UHGV virus genome: UHGV-0248979
Source of the DNA: a virus
DNA: 64,000 nt
Strand: one strand, 5' to 3'
The position numbers and the translations under genes were made by a program. Positions 3,308 through 24,777 of this stretch are shown piece by piece. Position 1 is the stretch's first letter; each line of letters opens with the position of its first letter. The notes under the pieces are model-generated. The model made no database searches and was not told the origin of the DNA. It saw nothing but the letters and a program-made list of their open reading frames with translations.

Positions 3308-3316
3308 CCCCCCCCC
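3308..3316 (-). repeat. homopolymeric G9 tract (C9 on the plus strand), intergenic between P2 and P1
   Basis: Nine consecutive C read directly at 3308-3316. Confidence 0.9.
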
Positions 3317-3985: not shown

Positions 3986-4477
3986 GTGAAAAGTATGATA
4001 AAACGTTTTCTTATTGTTATGGTTGGTGTTTTTTCATTGGCAGGATGTGCCTTACAACCGAATGGTGACGGCCAATTCTCGACTGTGCCGGTGGAGCCAC
4101 ATGATATGGTTATTTACACCTGTATGGGTGCAGAGCAAGATTTTGCAAATTACAAACCTGTCGTCAGCTCGACTAATATAATGTTAGGGTCAGTAACTGT
4201 ACTCGATACTGGTGCTAACTGGGTAGCCACTTGGCCAAACGGCAAGATTGAGTCGCCGCAACTTTATAAAGATTTATTAGGTAAAGTTAATGGGAATATT
4301 GATCCTATCACAGGACAACGTTACTATCGTGTAAATGGCTTACTTTCAAAAACGCCAACGTTTGCGTATTCTACTTTAGAATATAAAACGGGTGATGGTA
4401 AAGGCATTACTTTCTTCCACTGTAAAGAAGGTGTAGCGTCTGACACTGGAACAATGCTCCATCCTGCGGAACAATAA
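3986..4477 (+). CDS. putative lipoprotein (candidate superinfection-exclusion or moron gene)
   Basis: Signal peptide with lipobox (FSLAG-C); likely true start is the ATG near 3995 with an AAAGGTG RBS; isolated plus-strand gene with its own terminator. Confidence 0.6.
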   Translation: MKSMIKRFLIVMVGVFSLAGCALQPNGDGQFSTVPVEPHDMVIYTCMGAEQDFANYKPVVSSTNIMLGSVTVLDTGANWVATWPNGKIESPQLYKDLLGKVNGNIDPITGQRYYRVNGLLSKTPTFAYSTLEYKTGDGKGITFFHCKEGVASDTGTMLHPAEQ

Positions 4478-4520
4478 AAACTACCCTACTCCTTATCGGG
4501 AGTAGGGTATATTCATTTTA
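4478..4520 (+). terminator. rho-independent terminator between convergent genes
   Basis: Hairpin ctaccctactcc-ttatcg-ggagtagggta followed by a T-rich stretch. Confidence 0.6.
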
Positions 4521-4592
4521 ACCGCCAAATCGTGCGTAAAACGCATTCTGAGCGTCTTTATACAAAATAAGGTATAAACACCTTAGAAATAG

Positions 4593-5108
4593 TTAAATCT
4601 CGACTAAGGCGCTCCAATCGATTGGTTTTTGCTTAACAACTTTCACAGTACCACGATTTGGTGACCAGAAAGTAATGTTAGGCTGGTTACGAACGTCAAT
4701 GTGCAACCAACTGATGTCACATTCAATAAAGTGAATGAACGGAAACTCGTCAGGGTTAGCAGCGATATAGTCGTGAACCTGTTTTACGGTGCTATCCAAC
4801 AACGTTGCATCAATGGCGTTACCGAATTTGTGTTGACTTCCTGAATCGGCGTAAAGCTGCAACGCACGTTGTTTATAACTACCACCCTTAGGCTTTTCTT
4901 GATTAATAAAGAAATCTAAGGTTCTTAGTCCGCGCTGTTGTGCGGCAGTTGAGTTAATCACCATTCTGCCGAAACGATTACGAATCTGTTGTAGGGAGAT
5001 CATTAACAACGGATTCATAAACCGAATTGCGGAATCGCCGTATTTGGCAATATAGGACTGTGGTACTAACTCTCTGAGTTTAAAGTTACTCGGATTTGGA
5101 TGAAACAT
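4593..5108 (-). CDS. peptidase M15-like cell-wall hydrolase (DUF882/Peptidase_M15_3-like)
   Basis: Motif SQHKFGNAIDA (SxHxxGxAxD) and a later His, typical of zinc D,D-carboxypeptidase-like M15 domains. Confidence 0.6.
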   Translation of the reverse strand: MFHPNPSNFKLRELVPQSYIAKYGDSAIRFMNPLLMISLQQIRNRFGRMVINSTAAQQRGLRTLDFFINQEKPKGGSYKQRALQLYADSGSQHKFGNAIDATLLDSTVKQVHDYIAANPDEFPFIHFIECDISWLHIDVRNQPNITFWSPNRGTVKVVKQKPIDWSALVEI

Positions 5109-5760
5109 CTTCCCTCCCAGACAGAAAAGCCCGTTTGATGTTCAGGTATTTGACATTAACGGGACAATCTGTGGTGATATCAATACGTTCGTGGTCAGGG
5201 ATTGCAGGTTCCTTAAACTCGCGAACGAATAAATAGTTTCGATTGTAATCTAACGTACGAAACGCGTTAGTGCTGTAGGATGGCTTTGCATTAGGATCTA
5301 CGTAGGCATCCCAGCCGAATTCAACAACGGCCTTATAAAATGTTTGGCAGATATAAGGCGAGATTTCCAACGACTGCATAATACGCAGGAAAGTTAAGTC
5401 AGAGAACTCTTTATCGATGAAACGCGAAACGTTACCACCCGGTGTCATGGGATAGCTACGCTCCGTGTTGCATTTTTGATAGAGTAAGTCGTGAATACAG
5501 GCCGCAGGTGCCCACGGTCCGTCAGGATGGAAAATTCCCTGGAGGTGATCAGGAATTGACGCTAAATCGGTAACGAACCCTTTCGGTGCTGTTAACCACA
5601 GTTGCGTGTCAGGCAATACACCCGTTAAATAAACCGCACGGTCTAAGTGTACGTGGTCGTGATAAATCTCGCGTAACGTAAACGGATAATGGTAATCCTC
5701 CGTTAATACAAACCACTTATTGTCTAAACGTTTATATTGAAGCTTCTCCATTACCCACAC
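5086..5760 (-). CDS. DUF1353-like phage protein
   Basis: Motif TDLASIP...HD..Y resembling the DUF1353 signature; 224 aa. Confidence 0.5.
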   Translation of the reverse strand: MWVMEKLQYKRLDNKWFVLTEDYHYPFTLREIYHDHVHLDRAVYLTGVLPDTQLWLTAPKGFVTDLASIPDHLQGIFHPDGPWAPAACIHDLLYQKCNTERSYPMTPGGNVSRFIDKEFSDLTFLRIMQSLEISPYICQTFYKAVVEFGWDAYVDPNAKPSYSTNAFRTLDYNRNYLFVREFKEPAIPDHERIDITTDCPVNVKYLNIKRAFLSGREDVSSKSE

Positions 5761-5867: not shown

Positions 5868-6458
5868 TCATTTTACTAACCCCGCCTTCACTACATAATC
5901 CGGCATTTCCCTGTACACGCGTCCGTACCAGCCGTAAGCGAATTTTTCATTCTTCTTACGCTTTTCGGAGATTTCCGTGTAGTAGGTTACCTGATGTGAG
6001 ATTAACGCAAAGATTAAGATGCCTAATCCCTCGCCTTTACGGTAATTCAGATAAGCATTCAGAGCACCTAGTGTTTTAGGTCCCATACCACCATCGGTGT
6101 CAATATCTGCGTAAAGTTTCCCTTCGTTATTTAAAACGTTGAGAATACGTTGTAACGATTTCACACAGTTAACACGGCCAGAGTTAATACCAAAATCAAA
6201 CATCCTGTCGGCGAGTATCGGCGAGATAGCGAAAATCTCATCGAGTTTAAGTTTCTTCCACCAACCACGATCGTAAATATCAAACGCTTGCGCACGGGTC
6301 AGATCTTTCATTCTTCCTTTGTACCCGTATTCGCGTGCAGTTGTCAGTGTTACCCCGTGACAGGTTTCCCCACCTTTATCGTCAGGGTCATTGACGTACC
6401 CACCCTCTAAATCTGTTTTTGATTCAATAATACCTTCTTTAGTCCAACGTTCGGCCAT
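5868..6458 (-). CDS. endolysin, glycoside hydrolase family 108-like with peptidoglycan-binding domain
   Basis: N-terminal EGGYVNDPDDKGGETCHGVT signature typical of GH108 lysozymes; C-terminal region consistent with a PG-binding module. Confidence 0.75.
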   Translation of the reverse strand: MAERWTKEGIIESKTDLEGGYVNDPDDKGGETCHGVTLTTAREYGYKGRMKDLTRAQAFDIYDRGWWKKLKLDEIFAISPILADRMFDFGINSGRVNCVKSLQRILNVLNNEGKLYADIDTDGGMGPKTLGALNAYLNYRKGEGLGILIFALISHQVTYYTEISEKRKKNEKFAYGWYGRVYREMPDYVVKAGLVK

Positions 6459-6520: not shown

Positions 6521-6997
6521 TTATTTCTTCTTAGCGCGCGATGGCTTAGCTGGCGGTGTCTCGACAGACGGTTTACGCGCAACACGCACTGTAAAACCAC
6601 CGACCCAGGTTAGACACTCGGGGCGGAAGAAAATACCGTGCTCGATTGCACTGCCGTCTAGCGGCAACGCACCAACCTGCTCTACCCACACATCGTCTTC
6701 GGTAAGGGTTAAGCCATACTGCTCGTTAATTACAGGCAGCAAGTCCGCAGTCGTGGTTGCTGTCTCAACTAACAGTTTCGGCAATACGTTGTGGAAATAC
6801 AAACCTGCATCAATGCGGTTATACTGGAACGTTTGCTTATTAACATAACCGAGATTTTTAACCGGCACAACCGTAATTTCGGTGTTGTACGTACCGGTAC
6901 TTACGACGGGCTCACCCAATGTGACTTTGGCGGTGTCGAGCTCGGCGTCTGGGTTAGCCTTTTTAATAAGGTCGAAGATAGTTTCTTGACTGGTCAT
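6521..6997 (-). CDS. paralog family member P3 (putative tail-associated protein)
   Basis: 158 aa; shares the N-terminal pattern of the family. Confidence 0.55.
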   Translation of the reverse strand: MTSQETIFDLIKKANPDAELDTAKVTLGEPVVSTGTYNTEITVVPVKNLGYVNKQTFQYNRIDAGLYFHNVLPKLLVETATTTADLLPVINEQYGLTLTEDDVWVEQVGALPLDGSAIEHGIFFRPECLTWVGGFTVRVARKPSVETPPAKPSRAKKK

Positions 6998-7010: not shown

Positions 7011-7859
7011 TTAATCTAAGAATCCCGGTAAGACCGAATTAGTCTTGGCTAATTCAATCTTCGACTTCGGACGATCGGTTCCGTTAAAGTGAATTAACAG
7101 TTTACCGGTCAGGTTAGAACACATACCGCTTAGGGCGAGTACCAGCACACGCGTGTACTTCGCATTTGCGCCTTCGAAACCTGCGGTAGGGCCATCGTAG
7201 ATAACCTTAGCACCGAACAAGTTATTAGCAGCGTTCTTAGGTACGCTTACCCATTTCTCATCAACAACGTTAGTCAGTTTAGTAGCTAACTCTACTAAGT
7301 CTACGGTGCCGTTGATGGTAATTGGATCAAGGTAATCTTTTTCTGCGGTGAAGTCAATTGGGTAAGAATAAACCGCAGCGTTACCTTTCTTAGTGGACGG
7401 ATACTCTACCAGGTTTTCTAATTGAGTAACAGGTAGCAATTTAGCCAGATCAATAGGATCGCGTAGCGTAAGCGTCACTTCGCCACACCACTCGTAAGAT
7501 TTCTCGTTAGCGGTAAGTTGGTGGGTTTTACCTTCAACTTTCGCATCAACGATATCCGATGGCAGAATATTTAAATCGTATTTTGCGTTGATTGCGTTAA
7601 GCAAATCTGAGGCGGTTACAACACCGTCGTTACCGAATACCAACTCACCTGTTAGGTATTCGGGCAAATTACGACGATGGTAAGTCACCGTTAAAGTAGT
7701 AGACTCATCGCCTTTGAGTTTAGAAGTCAGAACCACCTGGGTATCAACCCCAGTACCAGTAGGTTCGCCGATATCAACATCACTGAAGGTCAATGGCGGA
7801 ACAATATTGTTTTCAGTGTTGATGAGTTTTAGCAGTTTCTGTTTTGACGTAAGAGACAT
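7011..7859 (-). CDS. paralog family member P4 (putative tail-associated protein)
   Basis: 282 aa; N-terminus LLKLINTENN...FSDVDIGEP matches the family pattern. Confidence 0.6.
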   Translation of the reverse strand: MSLTSKQKLLKLINTENNIVPPLTFSDVDIGEPTGTGVDTQVVLTSKLKGDESTTLTVTYHRRNLPEYLTGELVFGNDGVVTASDLLNAINAKYDLNILPSDIVDAKVEGKTHQLTANEKSYEWCGEVTLTLRDPIDLAKLLPVTQLENLVEYPSTKKGNAAVYSYPIDFTAEKDYLDPITINGTVDLVELATKLTNVVDEKWVSVPKNAANNLFGAKVIYDGPTAGFEGANAKYTRVLVLALSGMCSNLTGKLLIHFNGTDRPKSKIELAKTNSVLPGFLD

Positions 7860-15356: not shown

Positions 15357-15392
15357 TATAAAAACCGTAGGATGGACTTAGTCCATCCTACG
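15357..15392 (-). terminator. rho-independent terminator after the tailspike gene
   Basis: Hairpin ccgtaggatggac-ta-gtccatcctacgg followed by a T-run. Confidence 0.7.
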
Positions 15393-15399
15393 GTTTAAA

Positions 15400-17520
15400 T
15401 TAAATAACTACCCAGCTTTTACCATCGGAACCAATCTGCATTAGCGTAATACTTTCACTGGTATCAATGGGTTTGGCAAGACCTTCTGTCCCACTCTTTG
15501 GAGTGATGAGAACGTTTGAATTTTCCGGTTTAACGGTGATCTTACCAGCCTTATTTGCCACGATCTGAATATTTCTGCCCACGCTATATTCTAGATCAGG
15601 AATAGTAAGTTGGCCGCCACGGTTGGTGGGTGGGAAATACACATAAGACGACACATCTTCCTCAGATAACACTATGCTACCAGAATCACGATTGACCGAG
15701 ATCTCAAACTTAGAAATATCGATATCATAGGCAGTAACTTTCGTAATATCCGTCAGAACCAATTCGTTCAAATCGGTCTTAGCTGGACTGTTCGCCAGAT
15801 CAAATGGAGTACCATTCGTACCGTCCAGCACAGGTGTGACTGTGGTTTTATTGGCACCAGGATAAATGATTTCAAGCGTATGCCAGTTATTATCGTACGC
15901 ACCAAAAGTTCCTAATTTCGCATTTTGCTTTTTATGATGCATCAGATTAAGATTCGTAGCGTCGGTCTGTAAGAAAAAAGACATTAGGTACGGGTTCGTC
16001 TCAGCCACACCAGCGTCAGCAAATGTAGTACCAGAAGGTAGGTCGGACGCGGAAATACGCCAATAAAGTCCTAATCCGAAACGATCTGCTGCTAAATCAC
16101 CTTTTAGTCTAAAAGTAACGGTCAGACGTCCACCGTAACGTATCATGTCCGCAGCAGATGTCATTGACTTAGTTACATTCCAAGGTTTCATCTTTACAGC
16201 CTTTCTTAATTCGACGAAATGCCCGTTTCCATCCTCAGAATCTTGCACGGTTACGTTACAATCAACGATATTGTTCCAACCTTGCCCTTTCAGGGAACCA
16301 TCCCCACGACGTCCGTTATAACCCACAGACTCTACTAATGGGGTATAGCTTCTTACCACATTCTTATTGTCTTTGGAGCTCTTAGTGTCGTTCTTCGTCA
16401 GGAACATTGCACCAATCGCTGTTCTTGATAATATCTCGGCAGCTATTCTCTCTGAGATAATACCGCGTCGTGCCCAAGAACTGAAATGGCTATTCCTTGT
16501 TTCAGACGTCCAGTTTTTAACAGTACGGGAGGCAGCACCGTAATAGGCCGCACCAGTGATATCAGGATCGTCAGTGGGATCATTAGTCGGTACACGTTGG
16601 CCATTATCGTCGTACATGAATGGAACAAAAAAGATATTTTTTTGTTCATTGTTACGATAATTACCGTATACGGTTTCATATTGGGCAGGATATTTTTCCT
16701 TCCAATAATAGGTAGTGTCCCCGCAGATCCATGGTACTTCGGCGGTGTCGTACTCGGGCATCTGAGAGAGATGGTCAGAGAGATCAGTTCGGAAACGCTC
16801 TACCATTGCGTTAAATAACGCTGGTTGTTGTGCGTATTGTACTTTAGTCAGATCATACTCTCCCTGCATCCACACTACAGCCAAGAGTTTATTTTTAGGA
16901 TTAACTTCTAGAGCTTTTTTGGTCCGGCTAACTAAATCTTTATAAAGCGGTTTCTCCACCCCCCATAGCATTGACGACTCAGTGGCTCCTGTGGCTTCAT
17001 CGAAGGTACCTTCTGCACCACCCGTGAAAGCAGAACCGCCGCGTGCGCAGGGTACTAGTAAGATACCGGCGTTCTTAGGAATATACGGGAGAAGACGCTT
17101 CGCGATATGTAGACCTTGACCCACACATCCGTATTCACCTTTGCTCAAATTGGCATTGGGATGCGAGTATTTGGACATATCTTGCACGTCGTGCAGACAG
17201 TGATCCGCTGGAATGACGTCGTTATATTTACAATCAGCCCCATTAGGCGTTACCTTCGCACGGCGCGCCATCTGTTTAATTCGCGGATCGGGAGCGTCCA
17301 ACGTCGCCGGTAGAGGCAACCCTTCACCATAACTCATCGCATTAGATTGCCCGGCTATAGGAATCACGAAGTAATACTCCGGCTCCGTCGTGCCCTGAAG
17401 TTTTGCAATATCAATTTTATATTCTTTTTCTTCCTTAGAAAGAAGAACTAACGCACCTTTGAGATCGCCAGAGAAATTGTCGAGTTCATGGATACGTTTC
17501 TTTCCAATTGGCTGACTCAT
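15400..17520 (-). CDS. tailspike/tail fibre protein with SASA/SGNH-type carbohydrate esterase domain
   Basis: 706 aa; N-terminal segment homologous to the 1479-aa fibre N-terminus; GQSNAMSY motif typical of sialate O-acetylesterase-like SGNH hydrolases. Confidence 0.65.
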   Translation of the reverse strand: MSQPIGKKRIHELDNFSGDLKGALVLLSKEEKEYKIDIAKLQGTTEPEYYFVIPIAGQSNAMSYGEGLPLPATLDAPDPRIKQMARRAKVTPNGADCKYNDVIPADHCLHDVQDMSKYSHPNANLSKGEYGCVGQGLHIAKRLLPYIPKNAGILLVPCARGGSAFTGGAEGTFDEATGATESSMLWGVEKPLYKDLVSRTKKALEVNPKNKLLAVVWMQGEYDLTKVQYAQQPALFNAMVERFRTDLSDHLSQMPEYDTAEVPWICGDTTYYWKEKYPAQYETVYGNYRNNEQKNIFFVPFMYDDNGQRVPTNDPTDDPDITGAAYYGAASRTVKNWTSETRNSHFSSWARRGIISERIAAEILSRTAIGAMFLTKNDTKSSKDNKNVVRSYTPLVESVGYNGRRGDGSLKGQGWNNIVDCNVTVQDSEDGNGHFVELRKAVKMKPWNVTKSMTSAADMIRYGGRLTVTFRLKGDLAADRFGLGLYWRISASDLPSGTTFADAGVAETNPYLMSFFLQTDATNLNLMHHKKQNAKLGTFGAYDNNWHTLEIIYPGANKTTVTPVLDGTNGTPFDLANSPAKTDLNELVLTDITKVTAYDIDISKFEISVNRDSGSIVLSEEDVSSYVYFPPTNRGGQLTIPDLEYSVGRNIQIVANKAGKITVKPENSNVLITPKSGTEGLAKPIDTSESITLMQIGSDGKSWVVI

Positions 17521-17523
17521 CTA

Positions 17524-18036
17524 CTACTCTCCAAAAGTTAAGATTTTATTGTCAAACGTCAACACGACAGAATCATCACCGATGCCACACGGTGTTTCAT
17601 CTGGGCCGAAAACCACCACGGAGAACTGTCCTTTATAAGCGATGGAATTCGGAGCGATGCTAAGCGTTACCGCGTCTTTACCTACCGTGAACGACTGGTC
17701 GGTTAAATCGTCGGTTTGTAAGTTAGCACCACAAACGGCATTGACGGATTCGATAAGATCGTGTGCATTAAACCCTTCACCTCTTACTTTTACCAGAATA
17801 GGTTGTTGGTTTAACCACCGCTCTGCGGTTAAACGGTTGTAGTAGATTTGCAACGTTCTGTTTCCAGGACGTTTAATCTTTACAATGGCAGTGGAGTCAC
17901 GATCCATTTCATCACTGGTTTTTACGTCACTGACTTCAACCTCGTTCTCTTGCAAGTCAAGTTGGAGGTCATGGTTAACCAGTGAAATAACCATGTTAAG
18001 TGAAGTTAGTGATAAATCTGGTGTGAATTTTTCCAC
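17524..18036 (-). CDS. paralog family member P5, translationally coupled to the tailspike gene
   Basis: 170 aa; GTG start preceded by an AGGAGG RBS; stop 3 nt before the tailspike ATG. Confidence 0.6.
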   Translation of the reverse strand: MEKFTPDLSLTSLNMVISLVNHDLQLDLQENEVEVSDVKTSDEMDRDSTAIVKIKRPGNRTLQIYYNRLTAERWLNQQPILVKVRGEGFNAHDLIESVNAVCGANLQTDDLTDQSFTVGKDAVTLSIAPNSIAYKGQFSVVVFGPDETPCGIGDDSVVLTFDNKILTFGE

Positions 18037-18090
18037 GTATGTTTACCTCCTACGGTTGGGGGTCATAAAATATTGACTAAAAAACATTCA

Positions 18091-18100
18091 CCCCCCCCCC
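18091..18100 (-). repeat. homopolymeric G10 tract (C10 on the plus strand), 5' of P5
   Basis: Ten consecutive C read directly at 18091-18100. Confidence 0.9.
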
Positions 18101-18103
18101 ACG

Positions 18104-18131
18104 ATTATTTTCAACCGCTTTCAGTTGAAAA
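18104..18131 (-). terminator. hairpin at the 3' end of the adhesin-like gene
   Basis: 12-bp perfect stem attattttcaac/gttgaaaataat with loop cgctttca. Confidence 0.5.
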
Positions 18132-18134
18132 TAA

Positions 18135-18642
18135 TTAGCTAATTCTCAAATCACGCAGTGCGCCTGTCGATTTCATCACGTTTTGGAACGCAGCGCTGAT
18201 GTTATTAGTCCAGTAATAATGCTGTCCGTTAATAACCTGCTGATAGGCCAGCGCGCAGGTGTTACCACCTAAATTTACGGTAATGTTAGAGGCTCTGCCT
18301 CCTTGTAAGTAAACCGCTAAAGTAGGCTTTGCGTTGGCAACTATCGTCGTTAACTGTAACTCAATACCTACTAAAGTTCCCACCCCGCAGTTACCCGCGT
18401 TTTGAATGGTTCCCTGATTTTTCTGGTTTAACGGCCAGCTTGGTCCTACTGCGCCCCATTTCTTACCTAAAGAATCGCTATATGCAGCGGTTGCAATTTT
18501 ACAGCCCATAGATCGTCCCACCATTTGACTCATCATAAAAGGTCTACCCAATCCTAATTTACTACCAGCAGCGCTCATCCATTGTTCGCCCGTTTCGTTC
18601 TTGGCCGAAGAACCGACCCACGAACCGGTTACCCCCCCCCAT
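18135..18642 (-). CDS. adhesin-like tail fibre-associated protein, paralog B; 5' end put out of frame by a G9 tract
   Basis: ORF track gives 18135..18578. The same frame is open upstream (…GSWVGSSAKNETGEQW) and matches paralog A's N-terminus; an ATG with AGGAG RBS at 18642-18640 is +1 out of frame across the G9 run. Confidence 0.6.
18632..18640 (-). repeat. homopolymeric G9 tract overlapping the start codon of adhesin-like paralog B
   Basis: Nine consecutive C at 18632-18640; the minus strand reads AT-GGGGGGGGG-TAACC. Confidence 0.9.
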
Positions 18643-18654
18643 CGCGATCTCCTG

Positions 18655-18885
18655 TTAAGATTTTCTACATGTTATTGAATCGAAAGCACCACGCCCAACC
18701 CAACGCCAATTATAATGATGATCAGCTTTATAAAGTGTGTATCTGCCCTGCTTTTTTACGTCGAAAATATTGATCGTAGTCTCTTCATTACCCAGCTTAG
18801 CTGTGCCGTAACATACAGGTTCGGGTAGTTGTTGACATCCACTTACTGTAAGCAATGCGAAACCCAGTAAAACTTTTCTTAACAT
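18655..18885 (-). CDS. small lipoprotein between the two adhesin-like genes (candidate receptor-masking protein)
   Basis: 76 aa; signal peptide with lipobox (LLTVSG-C); mature part about 59 aa with further Cys. Confidence 0.6.
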   Translation of the reverse strand: MLRKVLLGFALLTVSGCQQLPEPVCYGTAKLGNEETTINIFDVKKQGRYTLYKADHHYNWRWVGRGAFDSITCRKS

Positions 18886-18895
18886 CTTTCTGTCC

Positions 18896-19441
18896 TTAGA
18901 CTACACTTATTGAAATTGTTGCACCGTTCTGATTAAATAACCAGTTGGTTGCCGTCTTAGCCTCATAGCGCCGGACGCCGTTACTGTAGGAGTACGGTAG
19001 AAAAGTAATCTTCGTTCCGTTAAACGAAAGCGTAATATTCTGATTTGGTCCATTGGTTAGGGCCATGTAGATAATACCAGTATTTTGTACTTGGCTAAGA
19101 TGTGTGACGCTACAACCCAAGATCGAACCTGACACCGAACCGGCCGCATTTTGTGTTTGCACACGATTCGATACTGTAGAACCAGCACCCGTTGTTGTAG
19201 AGTTGTTCGAATACCCCCCATACGTATTTGTAATAGGAACCCACTGCGTGTTCGTAGCCTGCACCAAAACAACATAGGTTGATCGGCCTACAACGAGTTT
19301 AAGATCCTCTACGCTACGCCCGACCATCTGCGACATGTTAAATGGCGTGCTCAGTTTAAGCTTATTACCTGCCACACTCATCCACTCCTGACCGGTTACT
19401 GCCTTTGCTGAGCTTCCAACCCAGCCGGATGCTACCCCCAT
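18896..19441 (-). CDS. adhesin-like tail fibre-associated protein, paralog A
   Basis: 181 aa, Gly/Ser/Thr/Asn-rich; ATG with GGAGGA RBS just downstream of the fibre gene terminator. Confidence 0.65.
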   Translation of the reverse strand: MGVASGWVGSSAKAVTGQEWMSVAGNKLKLSTPFNMSQMVGRSVEDLKLVVGRSTYVVLVQATNTQWVPITNTYGGYSNNSTTTGAGSTVSNRVQTQNAAGSVSGSILGCSVTHLSQVQNTGIIYMALTNGPNQNITLSFNGTKITFLPYSYSNGVRRYEAKTATNWLFNQNGATISISVV

Positions 19442-19451
19442 AAATCCTCCA

Positions 19452-19481
19452 AACTAAAATAGGGGGATTACTCCCCCTATC
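19452..19481 (-). terminator. hairpin terminator after the tail fibre gene
   Basis: Hairpin tagggggagtaatccccctat followed by a T-rich run on the minus strand. Confidence 0.6.
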
Positions 19482-19482
19482 T

Positions 19483-22400
19483 TTAATTCCCCTTGAGTTC
19501 TTTAAGCTCTTGGCGAAGAGTTTTCATGCCTTCTACTAACAACGCAATAACACCATTGTAATTTAGACGTAAACGTTTTTCGCCTGAAATGGCATCGTCG
19601 TCCTCGGACACAAGTTCAGGTAACGCTTCTAATGCGTCCTGAGCAATTAGACCTACAGAAGTCTGCCAACCGTCATCAGGATGCTGAATTTCGTACAAAT
19701 AACCGGTTAGTAACTCTAACCGATCCAAAGCTTTATCCAGCTTCACCAGATTACGTTTGTTACGACGGTCAGAACGAATCTGTACGTCGTTAAACGAACC
19801 GTTACCGTTGCCAGTAACGTTATGTCCAAAGTTTACTTGGCCGTTAGAATTATTAAAAGACAACGGGCGTAATCCGTTCCAGGAACCCGCTGCGGCTTGT
19901 CCGGCGTCGGTTACTAAGAAATAGGTATTGGCACCGTCGTTACGTAAAATAAAACCGTAGGTACCGTAAGCGATTCGAAAATCAGGGTATTTAGTGGCCA
20001 ATTTACCATTAACGGTTAAATCACCGCCTACAGTACCGCCCCCTGACGGTAACGCGCCCACTTCCGCAGCAGTTGGCTTGTTTCTCGTATTGTAAGCACG
20101 ACGCCAGCCTGGTGAGTATCCATCGCCGTTAAATACGTAGATAAACTCCGCATTAGTGAGTGCTCCGCCGACGCTCGTCGTTGTGGCGGTCGTTATACGG
20201 ATCGTGTAGTTGTTTGTGCTGTTGCCGTTACTAATGACTTCTATAACGGCCCCAGCTAACGGAATGACACCACAACCCGTCTCGCTGTGAGGTATGGACG
20301 CACTGGCGGCATAAGCCCACGCACAGCGAGCAACCCACGATCTTGTGGTAAATGCGCCGTTATTTTTCAATAACGTCACTAGCTGTGCTGTAGTTATTGC
20401 ACCGCCATTAGCGCCAGTTTCTAACCAACCACTAGGTGATGCCGGACAACCTATTTCGGCTGGCCCTAACGCTATATTTCTAGTGCCATCAAACGCAATA
20501 CCATTGATGGTTCTTGCGGTTTGCAACTTTGTTGCCGTGGCTGCGTTTCCGGTGGTCGACTGATTCCCTGTTTGGTTTACTCCAGGTAAACTGATGTCTT
20601 TAGTACCATCAAAAGCTACGCCACCTATATTTCGAGCAGTCTGTAGCTTAGTCGCTGTCGCCGCATTCCCCGTAGTCGATTGGTTACCGGTTTGGTTTAC
20701 ACCAGGAAGATTAACGTCTTTTGTCCCATCGAACACCACACCGCCGATCTTACGTGCGGTTTGTAACTTAGTAGCGGTCGCTGCATTACCTGTCGTATTC
20801 TGGTTGCCTTGCTGGTTAACGCCCGGTAAATTGATATCACCTGTACCGTCAAAGCTAACGCCTCCGATCCTGCGAGCGGTTTTCAGTTTCGTCGCGGTAG
20901 CGGCGTTGCCGGTAGTATCCTGATTACCTGTGGCATTTACACCAGGAATGCTATCACGGGCAGTATAAACTTGTGCCCAATCTGACCACGGCGCATCAGC
21001 AGTATCACGTCGACTACGAATATAAACGGGTGCGTGCGCACCGCTCGTCCCCGACCATCCGATTAACAGTTCCCCTTCGCCTAGCGCAGCAGAACCGCCC
21101 AAATGCAGTAAGTTACCATAAGCGGTTGGATAACCGTTATTGTAAACTTCGTACATCTGAATACCGGGTGTACCTTTGTTTGATCCAGTCAGTGCAGTAA
21201 CACGTCCACGTCCTACCAACGTGTTGATATTGATGTCTCTAGACCCATCAAATTTCACACCGTTGATGTTTCGAGCCGTTTGTAATTTGGTTGCGGTTCC
21301 CGCGTTCCCAGAGGTGTTTTGATTACCCTGTTGGTTTACACCAGGGAGGCTAATGTCTCCGCTACCGTCGAAACTTACACCGCCGATTAAACGGGCTGTT
21401 TTCAGTTTCGTTGCCGTAGCAGCATTGCCTGTTAACTCACCTGATAACCCTTTTGCAAAGGTCTGTTTTTCTGCCCACGTATGCGCTGCATTCAATACGG
21501 GCATCTGGCGGCTAGTAATAGTACGTTTACCCTTTTCACCAGCGACGCGAACAGCAAAGAAGCGATAGTTAGCAGTAGACACTGTACCACGCCAGACCAA
21601 CATACTCCGGCCAGTACCGGTGTCCTCCGACGCCCCTACAAGAATAGTAACCAAGTTACCGTCGATAACACCCCAATCCATTCCCGCAGGAATGTTTTTC
21701 ATGGTATTCAATGGTGTACTTATCATCTGGCCAGGAACGAAGTCGAAGGTTTGCCAGTCTAACGGATCTACCTTAGCAGCAACCCCACCGATCCCTAAAG
21801 CCAACGGGAGTGAATAGGATGTGAAAATCTCTCGCCATTCGCTCCAGGCATTTCCTGTACGAATTCGTTGGAACTTGCGACCTTTCGAAGTTGCGCCTGT
21901 ACCGTATGTGGTATAATTTTGTTCAACACCTGAACCGTCTAAGCGTAAGGTAACTTCGCAAACGCCTAGCAAGGTTGCGCCAGCAGAGTCTGTTAACGGA
22001 CCGTCTGTAGCCTCGCCGGTAACACTAAAGCGACCCGGTTTAGTTAAGTCGTTAAAGCTACCCTTATAGTAGGCACCGTCTACCTGATACCCAACCTGAA
22101 TCCAATCTTCCCACTGCGGATTAGACGAATCCCAAGTCGCAGTCAAACCACGGACATACATCGTACCACGACGAGTGGTGTAACGTTGTAAACGTCCATA
22201 AAGACCGCCTTCCATGACTTCTAATACGCCTTGCGCATTACCGCCCTCTTCAGGATAATGTCTGTCGAACACCGCTAACGAACTGGACGAGTTACGCCAG
22301 TTACCCATGTGCTCAGCGCCGCCTAAGGAGTTCAGATCGATCGATGTAGATAACGGGCGTACACCTGTAGTTACCATTCTCCACGGTGACCACGGGCCAT

Positions 22401-23922
22401 TAGTTCCGTTCCACGCGGCTGACAACATGCGGTTGTACACGTTACCATTACGGCAGGTAAAACGTTGCGCTCCACTGTAGTTGCCCGCTTTATACACTTC
22501 TAGATAACCTACCGCACCGTCTTCCGGGAAGTGTTTTGCTATTGATGCGTTTGTTGATGTCGACTTGGACCATGTTCCTGTGTAATTGGCATCTGGAGCA
22601 AATGTGTTAATATCAGCATCTGCGGGCATTTCACCACGGAAACGCAGATAGGTATCAGGAGATAGACCAATATTGCGAGCAAAGGTTTCTTTATTGGGGA
22701 TATCAGCACCGTTAGAGTTTTTCTGTAACGCAGAGTTCGCTTTATCTACAGTGGCTTTTAATCCCAAGAAATTGATGATATCCGCAGTTGTCCCTTTTGC
22801 TAACAAGGTTCTGGCGGTTTCTGTAAAGTCAGTTAACCCGACTTTATTAGTGCCAGTGAAATAAGGGAGCTTGTTTGCTGCGGTTGTGACTGCGGCAATA
22901 GCAGTAAGTAGTGGACTGATAGGTTGCTTCTGTGCAAGTTTCTCAGTAATCGTTGTTGCGAAGTTAGGGTCATTACCTAACGCCGTAGCTAATTCCGCTA
23001 AGGTATCTAACGTCTCAGGTGAAGAACCAACCAATTCCGCGATAGCAGCACGCACCCAGGCCGTTGTGGAGATGCTCGTGTCGTTCGAGTCCTTTGGGGG
23101 CGTTGGTGATGTCGGGTTACCCGTAAAATTCGGCGAATGTTTATCGGCTTTTAACTGTAATTCGTCGTTCAGCTGTTTAACCGTGGACGGTGTGGCAGCC
23201 TCCGTCACGGATTCGCTAGTCAGGGTATTGTTAAGTTTAACGATACCTTTACCGGTCGTACTAGCGTCAACTAAACCCTGTGCAGCGATTTTCTCCGCAC
23301 GCAGAGCGGCTGACTCCGAGCGTGTAGCTGCGCCTTCTGAGCTTTCTTTATCTTTCGTAACCTGCGCAGCAACCTTCTCCACCGCGCCCTTACTGGCCTC
23401 AATTGAAGCCGCAGTATTTGCGATACTGGTAGCGGTCTGTTGAACCTGTCCGGCCCGTTGCGTAACCGTTTCTGCTTTCTTAGTTACATCAGCCGCTACA
23501 GCTGTCACAGATTGTTCGCTTGCGGCGACAGCTTGAGCCTTCTCATTTACTGATTGTGAAACAGTATCTACGGCAGTTTTTGCTGCTAAAACTTCAGCGT
23601 GTTTTTTGTTAACCTCCGCAGTTTTAGTGGCGACGGTTCCCGCTTGCTCATTAACTGTGGAAGCTAAAGTGGTGGTCTGTTGCTTCGCTGTTTCTGCTAA
23701 ATCTTTAGCTTTCGTAGCTTCTGTTGCGGACTGTTGTGATTTGGCCGCAGCCGTTTGTGCATCAGCAACCGCACTTCTGACGGTGTCAATGTCCGCAACG
23801 ATCTCGCGGACTGGTAACTTATAATCTTTTTCGTCTTTCGAAAAAAGTAAAACGCCTTCACCGATATCCCCGGTGTACGGATGTAAGTCGTGTAAACGTA
23901 TTTTCTTTACCGCTTTAGCCAT
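19483..23922 (-). CDS. long tail fibre protein with C-terminal intramolecular chaperone (peptidase S74-like) domain
   Basis: 1479 aa; Ala/Thr/Gln-rich N-terminal region; six ~40-aa repeats (GNQxTTGNAATATKLQTAR.IGGV.FDG); C-terminal SDRRNKRNL...LVEGMKTL motif typical of self-cleaving chaperone domains. Confidence 0.85.
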   Translation of the reverse strand: MAKAVKKIRLHDLHPYTGDIGEGVLLFSKDEKDYKLPVREIVADIDTVRSAVADAQTAAAKSQQSATEATKAKDLAETAKQQTTTLASTVNEQAGTVATKTAEVNKKHAEVLAAKTAVDTVSQSVNEKAQAVAASEQSVTAVAADVTKKAETVTQRAGQVQQTATSIANTAASIEASKGAVEKVAAQVTKDKESSEGAATRSESAALRAEKIAAQGLVDASTTGKGIVKLNNTLTSESVTEAATPSTVKQLNDELQLKADKHSPNFTGNPTSPTPPKDSNDTSISTTAWVRAAIAELVGSSPETLDTLAELATALGNDPNFATTITEKLAQKQPISPLLTAIAAVTTAANKLPYFTGTNKVGLTDFTETARTLLAKGTTADIINFLGLKATVDKANSALQKNSNGADIPNKETFARNIGLSPDTYLRFRGEMPADADINTFAPDANYTGTWSKSTSTNASIAKHFPEDGAVGYLEVYKAGNYSGAQRFTCRNGNVYNRMLSAAWNGTNGPWSPWRMVTTGVRPLSTSIDLNSLGGAEHMGNWRNSSSSLAVFDRHYPEEGGNAQGVLEVMEGGLYGRLQRYTTRRGTMYVRGLTATWDSSNPQWEDWIQVGYQVDGAYYKGSFNDLTKPGRFSVTGEATDGPLTDSAGATLLGVCEVTLRLDGSGVEQNYTTYGTGATSKGRKFQRIRTGNAWSEWREIFTSYSLPLALGIGGVAAKVDPLDWQTFDFVPGQMISTPLNTMKNIPAGMDWGVIDGNLVTILVGASEDTGTGRSMLVWRGTVSTANYRFFAVRVAGEKGKRTITSRQMPVLNAAHTWAEKQTFAKGLSGELTGNAATATKLKTARLIGGVSFDGSGDISLPGVNQQGNQNTSGNAGTATKLQTARNINGVKFDGSRDININTLVGRGRVTALTGSNKGTPGIQMYEVYNNGYPTAYGNLLHLGGSAALGEGELLIGWSGTSGAHAPVYIRSRRDTADAPWSDWAQVYTARDSIPGVNATGNQDTTGNAATATKLKTARRIGGVSFDGTGDINLPGVNQQGNQNTTGNAATATKLQTARKIGGVVFDGTKDVNLPGVNQTGNQSTTGNAATATKLQTARNIGGVAFDGTKDISLPGVNQTGNQSTTGNAATATKLQTARTINGIAFDGTRNIALGPAEIGCPASPSGWLETGANGGAITTAQLVTLLKNNGAFTTRSWVARCAWAYAASASIPHSETGCGVIPLAGAVIEVISNGNSTNNYTIRITTATTTSVGGALTNAEFIYVFNGDGYSPGWRRAYNTRNKPTAAEVGALPSGGGTVGGDLTVNGKLATKYPDFRIAYGTYGFILRNDGANTYFLVTDAGQAAAGSWNGLRPLSFNNSNGQVNFGHNVTGNGNGSFNDVQIRSDRRNKRNLVKLDKALDRLELLTGYLYEIQHPDDGWQTSVGLIAQDALEALPELVSEDDDAISGEKRLRLNYNGVIALLVEGMKTLRQELKELKGN
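20470..21450 (-). repeat. tandem ~117-nt coding repeats (phage tail fibre repeat units) inside the fibre gene
   Basis: Near-identical nucleotide units in two blocks (4 + 2 copies) separated by an insert; boundaries approximate. Confidence 0.7.
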
Positions 23923-24127
23923 GATATTTAATTCTCTATCTGGAGCTAAAAGATCTGGGAAGGTAAAACACCTCCCCCAACATTTTTATAAGCGGATTAT
24001 TATACTGGTTTTAATCCATCATCTTCTAACGTGAAAGTGATGCCCAACTCCGCGTTCTCATGATCTGGGTTTACTAAGTCTTGATAAACGTTTGCTTTGG
24101 CCTCCATTACCAGAAAAACCGTCAAGT

Positions 24128-24724
24128 TCATGTAGCCGGGTTTTCTTCAGCGGAGTCTCCATCTGGAACCTCAAATGTAAGAACAGCATCGTCACCAATA
24201 CAGAAGATTGCATCTTCTTCGTTTGCTAATGCCCGTTCAGTTTTATCAAATAACGTCACCATAAACGCATTCACCCACGCTGGAGAATCGTCAGCAACGT
24301 TGACAGCAATAGGATCGTTACCTAAAGTGATATCTGAAGCATGTAAATCCTCGGGTTGTAAGTTCGTTCCGCAGAATTCATTTACAACACCTAAAATGTC
24401 ACGAAGGTTGTCTTCGGTACCATCTAACGAAATCAAAATAGGTTCGGACGCTAACACTTTGTCCGCATCCAAGCGGTCGTAATAAACAACTACAGAAGCA
24501 CCATCAGGTTTCCTGATTTTTGTAATCTCTGTCAGTGTGTTACGACGCGACGTAGTCGGGGACAGGTTTGCCATAGTGTTGCTAATACGAATTTCGCTTA
24601 GAGACAACCGTGAACCGTTATCGTGGTTGATTAAAGCGACCACCAATTCGGCTGAGGACAGACTTAAATCAGGTACGTATGTGGCCACTATAGCCTCCCA
24701 GATCAAAAAAAAAATAAAAAACAT
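24128..24724 (-). CDS. paralog family member P6, upstream of the tail fibre gene
   Basis: N-terminal region (VPDLSLSSAELVVALINHDNG) homologous to P5; true start probably a GTG near 24681 with GGGAGG RBS (the ORF-track N-terminus translates a poly-T run). Confidence 0.55.
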   Translation of the reverse strand: MFFIFFLIWEAIVATYVPDLSLSSAELVVALINHDNGSRLSLSEIRISNTMANLSPTTSRRNTLTEITKIRKPDGASVVVYYDRLDADKVLASEPILISLDGTEDNLRDILGVVNEFCGTNLQPEDLHASDITLGNDPIAVNVADDSPAWVNAFMVTLFDKTERALANEEDAIFCIGDDAVLTFEVPDGDSAEENPAT

Positions 24725-24751
24725 CTACCGCCCATAGAATCGGGCGGTAGA
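24703..24751 (-). terminator. rho-independent terminator
   Basis: Hairpin ctaccgcccgattctatgggcggtag followed by a long T-run on the minus strand. Confidence 0.7.
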
Positions 24752-24777
24752 CAGTCATTTTACAGCTAAATATCAAA

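Follow-up and report, generated by a model that had tools for sequence, protein, structure and literature searches.

Why do two proteins with unrelated bodies begin with the same N-terminal module, and what could this module be for? The question is raised by the window, the whole stretch of 64,000 nucleotides (nt) of virus genome UHGV-0248979 that was analysed here. On its minus strand, a long fibre of 1479 amino acids (aa; 19483-23922) and a protein of 706 aa (15400-17520) are encoded, and both open reading frames (ORFs) exist as given in a preliminary description of this DNA. The same description had assigned homologous N-termini and different distal modules to the two proteins. Both assignments were confirmed: the homology of the N-termini, which constitute a modular anchor common to both proteins, has a BLASTP E value of 1e-6, and the distal parts match different Pfam and PDB domains. 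The anchor, of 41 residues, is here taken with moderate confidence to tether interchangeable host-recognition modules to the tail periphery of an SPN3US-like jumbo phage.

The 41-residue anchor

The fibre and the 706-aa protein, an esterase, align from residue 1, with 14 of 41 residues identical and 30 of 41 similar. A profile of the module scored 77-84 bits on both proteins. The anchor spans aa 1-41 in each (fibre, 23800-23922, 'VKKxRLHxL' flavour; esterase, 17398-17520, 'IGKKRIHEL' flavour) and lies on the minus strand, as do the other features of the locus given below. The consensus reads M-x4-(K/G)K-x-R(L/I)H(E/D)L-x3-x-G(D/E)...L(F/L)SK-x2-K(E/D)YK. Besides the two window proteins, it heads SPN3US gp123, Asesino gp140, and a 153-aa protein and the fibre of an Enterobacter element (L001).

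A third, vestigial anchor (METPLKKTRLHELDGFSGN...) was located at 24061-24162 (34 codons; hidden Markov model of the anchor, E 3e-7). It consists of a 19-residue remnant of the gp123 type, followed by unrelated sequence and a stop, and overlaps the end of the upstream gene, DUF7941-A. This vestige is the remnant of a gp123-type gene, which was lost together with a gp124-type tail protein of 1000 aa. SPN3US, Asesino and the Enterobacter element have kept the gp123/gp124-type gene pair intact.

When the anchor profile was run against 1.84 billion representative proteins, about 18 genuine clusters were obtained. All were confined to the SPN3US-like phage group, and in all of them the match started at residue 1; the other hits were repeat proteins with multiple partial matches and were counted as noise. 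At least eight mutually unrelated bodies follow the anchor: 154-156 aa (gp123-type), 133, 188, 205, 273, 706 (the esterase), 710 (Ig/propeller-like, with Ig for immunoglobulin) and 1494 aa (the fibre). Only 5 short fragments were returned from a word-indexed set of 5.8 billion proteins, apparently an effect of candidate selection. These fragments pointed to a frameshift between anchor and esterase in a sister lineage (see below). The anchor family appears to be undescribed so far.

Anchors and DUF7941 genes were mapped in eight loci. The order was kept throughout: DUF7941-A, the gp123-type gene (with gp124), the fibre (with adhesins or assembly protein), an optional 273-aa gene, DUF7941-B, an optional 205-aa gene, and then the 710-aa gene or the esterase. 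The window has two intact anchored genes; in relatives the number reaches five. The anchor occurs in two flavours, 'VKKxRLHEL' in the upstream set and '(I/V)GKxR(I/V)HEL' after DUF7941-B. An attachment site common to fibre and esterase is plausible; the idea of one such site is qualified by the five anchored proteins of some relatives and by the two flavours.

The cassette and its DUF7941 proteins

The anchored genes belong to a host-recognition cassette of 9.3 kilobases (kb), a leftward string of genes without interruption between hairpins at 24753 and 15362. In leftward order it comprises DUF7941-A, the anchor vestige, the fibre, a gp38-like adhesin, Cor, a second gp38-like gene, DUF7941-B and the esterase. 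The upstream boundary is a strong terminator-like hairpin at 24722-24753 (13-bp stem and T-run), and the downstream boundary another at 15362-15396 (16-bp stem and T-run directly after the esterase stop). Because it is closed by such hairpins at both ends, the cassette is regarded as a discrete unit.

A paralogous DUF7941 gene stands at the head of each anchored-gene group in the window. DUF7941-A (24128-24688; mechanically called ORF to 24724) consists of the N-terminal DUF7941 domain only and measures 186 aa in sister contigs. DUF7941-B (17524-18036) has 170 aa, and 3 nt separate its stop from the start of the esterase. The two scored 51.6 and 64.8 bits with PF25613 (cutoff 27; E 1e-17 for DUF7941-A) and are 34% identical to each other (E 2e-32). 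DUF7941-A is the orthologue of SPN3US gp122, as found by tblastn to SPN3US and Asesino. The succession of a DUF7941 gene and an anchored gene, with a gap of 0-3 nt or an overlap, recurs in Seoulvirus, Erskinevirus and the window group.

An AlphaFold2 (AF2) model of DUF7941-B was obtained at a predicted local distance difference test (pLDDT) of 69 and a predicted template-modelling score of 0.64. It had one clear structural neighbour, the N-terminal domain of phiKZ gp127 (PDB 9XQD). The gp127 region of the outer peripheral baseplate is the fibre-attachment platform of phiKZ, whose fibres gp131, gp133, gp134 and gp135 have an N-terminal segment in common and differ in their distal parts (PMC13250141). 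For the DUF7941 proteins of phage Goslar, head-to-tail assembly has been reported and a place on the peripheral baseplate proposed; carbohydrate-binding or hydrolase domains are fused to some of them (preprint 10.64898/2026.04.21.720040). By mass spectrometry of SPN3US virions, the anchor-bearing gp123 (16.5 kDa) and gp124 (113.7 kDa) were found and were not marked 'Head' (PMC5694885, Suppl. Table 1).

Two more DUF7941 paralogues are encoded elsewhere in the window, at 6521-6997 (158 aa) and at 7011-7859 (full-length, 282 aa). DUF7941 corresponds to 'paralog family B' of SPN3US, for which the literature is split between a head and a baseplate location. Sequence searches of solved structures with the gp123-type protein P0133 and with DUF7941-A gave nothing meaningful. 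The possibility that gp123-type proteins are a split-off half of DUF7941, made of linker and C-terminal domain (CTD), was rejected, with Pfam empty for P0128 and P0133 and BLASTP against the DUF7941 protein of 7011-7859 at E >2.

The anchored esterase

By its sequence, the 706-aa protein is a homologue of NanS/NanS-p-type sialate O-acetylesterases in which the anchor has replaced DUF1737. It was identified from its ORF, Pfam and PDB matches and an AF2 model. The preliminary description had placed it among the SASA/SGNH esterases on account of a GQSNAM motif, and rightly so. The motif is held by a SASA match (PF03629) of 45.7 bits, against a Pfam gathering cutoff of 24.8. The SGNH/SASA sialate O-acetylesterase domain covers aa 45-366 (16423-17388), of which aa 45-364 match NanS (PDB 3PT5) at E 3e-122; in the model the template-modelling (TM) score by Foldseek is 0.88 at 57% identity. 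In the alignment with the 3PT5 chain, Ser59 (of the GQSN block) and His345 correspond to Ser30 and His312, and neither residue varies among 80 homologues.

The second domain is a lectin-like jelly-roll of the DUF6645 family at aa 390-610 (15691-16353). Here aa 400-610 match the C-terminal domain of NanS-p (6YP6, E 2e-38; DUF6645, E 2e-30; TM 0.90). Compared with the sialic-acid-binding lectin domain of the V. cholerae sialidase (2W68), the jelly-roll gave a TM score of 0.72. A C-terminal beta-domain of 95 aa follows at aa 613-706 (15403-15684). It is also found in Salmonella prophage esterases and lies outside the coverage of E. coli NanS-p from Shiga toxin (Stx) phages. Over aa 45-706, the esterase is 52-62% identical to Salmonella prophage 'sialate O-acetylesterases', and over aa 41-612 about 50-53% identical to Stx-phage NanS-p.

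The AF2 model (pLDDT 78) shows the SGNH domain, a disordered linker at aa 370-387, the jelly-roll at high confidence and the C-terminal beta-domain. A beta-helix was sought in this model and none was seen; the top structural matches were NanS, NanS-p and lectins. The protein is therefore not a classical tailspike, and that earlier name fits it only as a loose label, the structure being SGNH domain, jelly-roll and small beta-domain.

No Pfam match to DUF1737 (PF08410) was obtained in the esterase, whose aa 1-41 are the jumbo-phage anchor instead. Catalytic activity would be expected. The known substrate of the NanS-p family is 9-O-acetylated sialic acid. In the preliminary description, deacetylation of a surface polysaccharide was proposed; host mucin would be no less likely a target than a bacterial glycan with an O-acetylated sialic or nonulosonic acid. 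Among homologues, other N-terminal modules occur: DUF1737 in many, a lambda Stf-type PF08400 with coiled coil in a prophage protein (P0011), and further beta modules. One NanS-p, gp84 of phage phi24B, decorates the capsid, where a DUF1737 hexamer holds it (preprint 10.64898/2026.04.10.717836). From these varied N-terminal modules and from the place of phi24B gp84 on the capsid, the esterase family looks virion-displayed with exchangeable anchors.

The long fibre, its repeats and its tip

The fibre was identified from its ORF and from Pfam, PHROG and PDB matches. It carries a Phage_fiber_2 repeat at aa 221-260 (23143-23262; Pfam E 3e-10) and a Gp34_trimer-like domain at aa 1256-1355 (19858-20157; Pfam E 6e-19; PDB 5NXF, 4UXE, 8JU3). 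PHROG matches to distal long-fibre subunits fall on aa 1366-1477. The C-terminal domain, called a self-cleaving chaperone in the preliminary description, is of that type: Peptidase_S74 matches from SDRRNK onwards, over aa 1384-1438 (E 5e-10, 39.9 bits against a Pfam cutoff of 22). The intramolecular chaperone comprises aa 1384-1479 (19486-19773) and opens with S1384-DRRN-K1389. This fits a Ser-Lys dyad (Ser1384/Lys1389) of spacing S-x4-K, a rule from endosialidase work. The last 140 residues match the tip construct of S16 gp37 (PDB 6F45, E 1e-11). After folding, the chaperone would be cut away, and the fibre tip would then be exposed for capping by a gp38-like adhesin.

Six 40-aa repeats of the GNAATATKLxTARxIGGVxFDG type were located, starting at aa 832, 872, 1005, 1045, 1085 and 1125 (repeats 1-2, aa 832-911, 21190-21429; repeats 3-6, aa 1005-1164, 20431-20910), so that 40-aa repeats are present as first described. 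They had also been described as near-identical repeats of 117 nt, which has to be corrected. The period is 120 nt, and the four good copies are 63-74% identical pairwise in DNA, with a longest exact match of 15 nt, and 75-90% identical in protein. With copies diverged to this degree, the repeats are poor substrates for homologous recombination within this genome, a role once proposed for them. Among relatives, repeat number nevertheless differs (4-5 in L017 and L018, against 6 in the window), and the fibres diverge sharply at about aa 1160, directly past the array, where the distal-tip swaps start. The array is thus taken to mark a boundary at which exchanges or indels occurred in the past.

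Directly downstream of the fibre lies the gene of a gp38-like tip adhesin of 181 aa (18896-19441; phrog_1121) with a complete Gp38_N domain (Pfam E 2e-20; 72.7 bits, cutoff 25). It is followed by a Cor-type superinfection-exclusion lipoprotein of 76 aa (18655-18885; phrog_1119, E 1e-25; VSGC lipobox) and by the second gp38-like adhesin gene (18135-18642), which is out of frame in the window. No Pfam match to the polyglycine GP38 domain (PF05268) was found in either window adhesin; this domain is present in the adhesins of relatives L001 and L010 (260 aa in L010). Since the Cor gene adjoins the adhesin gene, it is suggested that the receptor of the adhesin is an outer-membrane protein blocked by Cor.

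The tip of the fibre has a counterpart in the Stx Traversvirus podophage vB_EcoP_phi296. The end of the mature tip together with the S74 chaperone is 69% identical to the fibre of that phage, the 181-aa adhesin 69% and Cor 62%. The trio of tip/chaperone, adhesin and Cor stands in the same order in both (window 18655-19800; vB_EcoP_phi296 4100-5286). With this trio for the fibre and the NanS-p homology for the esterase, both recognition bodies have their nearest characterised relatives in enteric lambdoid prophages.

The 5' end of the gene for the second adhesin contains a stretch of 135 nt (18486-18620) that is 96% identical to phage-like plasmids of about 108-110 kb from E. coli O104:H4 and Shigella sonnei. 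The same stretch is 88-90% identical to gp38 genes of chromosomal prophages. These matches in plasmids and prophages indicate recent exchange of adhesin 5' ends.

Poly-G tracts

The second gp38-like gene opens with ATG and a run of G (9 G, 18632-18640), in whose count the G of ATG is included. In seven assemblies the run measured 8, 8, 9, 9, 9, 9 and 10, the window being among those with 9. Only G8 (L008, L009) is in frame and gives a 168-aa adhesin with complete Gp38_N; G9 and G10 (L004) are out of frame. The flanking sequence of about 800 nt was 100% identical in the four aligned sequences (window, L004, L008, L009). As related adhesin genes begin ATGGGGGTA, the tract is read as an expansion of a native G5. 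Three G or C runs of at least 9 were seen in the window versus 0.07 expected under a first-order Markov model, and 0 of 1000 simulations reached three. The tract at 18632-18640 looks like a candidate phase-variable on/off switch of the alternative adhesin; a homopolymer assembly error is also possible. Receptor-binding genes of Campylobacter phages carry hypermutable poly-G contingency tracts. Contingency loci are known from T2/T4 as well (PMC12633550).

In a sister lineage (esterase 92% identical; L010, L012-L014; P0001, P0002), a G9 tract lies exactly at the junction of anchor and esterase (10127-10135 in L010). It splits the gene into an anchor ORF of 45 aa and an esterase ORF of 663 aa, whose stop and start overlap in GTGA. 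A G8 form is found at this junction as well; a length of G7 or G10 would bring anchor and esterase back into one frame. In the window, the corresponding position reads CAG GGC ACG, so that no tract is present.

Two further runs were noted in the window. A G10 run at 18091-18100, intergenic and before DUF7941-B, measures 9-11 G across assemblies. A G9 run at 3308-3316 is likewise intergenic, has CCCCC next to it and could form a hairpin.

Role of the anchor and alternative explanations

We prefer, as rather probable, an explanation in which the anchor fixes interchangeable modules for host recognition at the periphery of the tail. It would act as a lineage-specific virion-attachment 'plug' for exchangeable distal bodies at the periphery of tail or baseplate. 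We infer that the anchor binds to the virion at the tail with DUF7941 as partner, the short DUF7941 proteins encoded upstream probably serving the anchors of each group. The first body would be a distal long fibre of T2/S16 type with its tip capped by the gp38-like adhesin, and the Cor lipoprotein would block the receptor in infected cells. The second body would be a tethered enzyme that both binds and modifies glycans, a sialate 9-O-acetylesterase with a jelly-roll resembling sialic-acid lectins.

A more specific version is put forward tentatively and is itself doubtful. According to it, the plug, specific to SPN3US-like chimalliviruses, docks receptor-binding proteins and glycan-modifying enzymes on the N-terminal domains of DUF7941 proteins in the peripheral baseplate or along filaments of DUF7941, and the poly-G tracts set the display virion by virion. 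In such a plug-and-socket arrangement, the alternative adhesin would be on or off, the esterase of the sister lineage tethered or free, and Goslar would represent the case of direct fusion.

Several observations weigh against tethering at the tail through DUF7941. The esterase anchor is predicted to be disordered when modelled alone (pLDDT <50). In sequence, the anchor showed no resemblance to solved structures; a match to Elongin-C (E 0.07) in this search was dismissed as noise. The anchor profile found no match in the N-termini of phiKZ gp131, gp133, gp134 and gp135 (hmmsearch, filters off, E up to 1000), and no similarity was seen between the anchor and the linker or CTD of DUF7941. SPN3US gp122, the orthologue of DUF7941-A, was undetected in wild-type virions, and the DUF7941 family was put among the head proteins by the SPN3US authors. 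In relatives, up to five anchored proteins stand against two short DUF7941 genes, which weakens a simple 1:1 pairing of anchor and DUF7941. The two anchor flavours do track position relative to DUF7941-A and DUF7941-B, yet shared ancestry explains this equally well. Finally, the anchor is frameshifted off the esterase in most sister-lineage assemblies, so that tethering of the esterase is not obligatory.

The last point bears on the alternative that the esterase is a soluble 'moron' enzyme freed at lysis, as was long assumed of NanS-p. It would have come to lie behind the 5' end of a former receptor-binding gene, the shared N-terminus being a recombination scar without a role in attachment. 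Such an origin would suit the sister-lineage tract that parts anchor and esterase ORFs, the position of the esterase in a slot that relatives fill with the unrelated anchored 710-aa protein, and the literature, which describes NanS-p as a growth-substrate enzyme for lysogens. It is nevertheless unlikely. The fused 706-aa form is kept with its anchor intact in several clusters at 89-98% identity, the anchor being roughly as conserved as the esterase body. Moreover, the gene is part of the terminator-bracketed cassette, its translation is coupled to that of DUF7941-B, virion-binding N-termini of other kinds are found in homologues, and the NanS-p of phi24B is virion-bound.

The match of the DUF7941-B fold to a structural baseplate protein argues against a second alternative, in which the 41-residue module is an assembly tag outside the final interface, either recognised by a short DUF7941 protein as chaperone or acting as an oligomerisation element. 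Other DUF7941 paralogues are abundant in virions, and the cassette already has a fibre chaperone in S74, with TAP proteins in relatives. An assembly tag is accordingly judged improbable, even though the absence of gp122 from wild-type virions is as expected of a chaperone, the anchor is disordered on its own, and anchored genes follow both DUF7941 genes in tight coupling.

Attachment of the anchor to the capsid or to a head DUF7941, with fibre and esterase as head decorations or head fibres, is judged very improbable: SPN3US proteomics did place 'paralog family B' in the head (members were found in a tailless mutant) and phi24B NanS-p does sit on capsid hexons, but the anchor-bearing gp123 and gp124 are absent from the SPN3US head-protein list, the DUF7941-B fold is that of phiKZ gp127, modelled on the outer baseplate, and fibres of T-even distal type with a tip adhesin, such as the 1479-aa fibre, are tail organelles in every characterised case. 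Tethering of exchangeable recognition modules at the tail periphery is therefore retained as the preferred explanation.

Source phage and neighbouring genes

The window derives from an SPN3US-like (phiKZ-type, chimallivirus) jumbo phage of Enterobacteriaceae of about 225 kb. The window also contains genes for a major capsid protein of phiKZ type and for an inner-head protein, and it is syntenic with SPN3US and with Erwinia phage Asesino. At the DNA level, its nearest relative is a circular 'plasmid' of 222 kb from Enterobacter ludwigii (L001, NZ_CP134650.1), and near-identical proteins are found on contigs of about 222-226 kb in assemblies of Shigella flexneri, Salmonella and E. coli. The assignment to an SPN3US-like phage of enteric bacteria follows from these capsid genes, the synteny and the relatives. 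In a megablast search with the locus as query, run on collections of phages, plasmids and E. coli, the Enterobacter 'plasmid' was the one close relative; a second, more distant one was seen in E. coli (NZ_CP173450.1, 221.9 kb).

Assemblies of bacterial isolates contain phages of this group in the form of circular 'plasmids' or of one large contig, which suggests a carrier or pseudolysogenic state.

At 5868-6458, an endolysin with GH108 and PG_binding_3 domains is encoded, adjoined by the two further DUF7941 paralogues. A tRNA scan of the window found none. A sigma-70 promoter scan of the window gave fewer sites than the shuffled expectation, a result uninformative for a phage with its own RNA polymerases.

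Significance

Host recognition by jumbo phages is poorly known, and the peripheral baseplates of phiKZ and Goslar were resolved or partly resolved only in 2026. The anchor provides a short sequence signature by which the exchangeable recognition modules of SPN3US-like phages can be picked out, and the adjacent DUF7941 is its suggested partner. NanS-p genes have long been regarded as accessory genes with a metabolic role in Stx prophages. A NanS-p body on an unrelated jumbo-phage anchor is independent genomic evidence for display on the virion, in agreement with the Stf-type fusion in P0011. It also agrees with the view that phages bind or remodel O-acetylated sialoglycans. In application, the anchor could serve for engineering new heads onto SPN3US-like phages, and poly-G tracts would bear on the host-range stability of therapeutic stocks. 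The DUF7941 link and poly-G switching would be of interest if true.

Comparison with known systems

The window esterase shares its SGNH/SASA domain, with GQSN serine and histidine, with NanS-p (phi24B gp84, vb_24B_21) and with E. coli NanS (YjhS). With NanS-p it has in common the lectin-like jelly-roll and a layout of three parts, with an N-terminal module for binding to the virion ahead of the enzyme. It differs in having the 41-aa anchor in place of the capsid-binding DUF1737, with a linker of only about 4 residues between anchor and enzyme. It is also found in the genome of a lytic-type jumbo myovirus, whereas NanS-p occurs in lambdoid prophages.

Conserved N-terminal modules with swappable heads, and SGNH esterases displayed on virions, are familiar from G7C gp63.1/gp66, the Vi-specific acetylesterases and the anchors of Klebsiella phages KP32 and KP34. 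The viral receptor-destroying haemagglutinin-esterases of influenza C (HEF) and of coronaviruses (HE) likewise combine a lectin with a sialate-O-acetylesterase. The body of the window esterase is NanS-like rather than of the G7C or Vi type, and it is without a trimeric beta-helix.

The fibre resembles the gp37-gp38 tip of T2/S16 (6F45), with which it shares the S74 chaperone with its Ser-Lys dyad and adhesins with Gp38_N. It is attached through the anchor, whereas T2/S16 use the gp36 joint. The window also differs in having two alternative adhesin genes with Cor between them, and adhesins without the polyglycine GP38 domain. As in phage contingency loci, a G tract lies at the 5' end of an adhesin gene, varies in length between otherwise identical genomes and sets the frame. 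Unlike the loci of Campylobacter phage and T2/T4, the window tract lies in an enterobacterial jumbo phage; its length differences are those between assemblies.

The phiKZ fibres gp131, gp133, gp134 and gp135 follow the same principle, a shared docking N-terminus with distal differences, and the platform there includes the DUF7941 protein gp127. Their N-terminal segments are without detectable similarity to the anchor, and the window bodies are unrelated to the gp131 propeller. In the 'fibre cloud' of Goslar (10.64898/2026.04.21.720040), the N-terminal domain of DUF7941 occurs in genes of the recognition region, as in the window. The recognition domains of Goslar are fused to DUF7941, whereas in the window they are encoded in separate adjacent genes and the body bears the 41-aa module. 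The swapping of recognition modules on a common anchor is thus a known principle, and the NanS-p esterase, itself a known enzyme, is here placed in a virion setting that is new.

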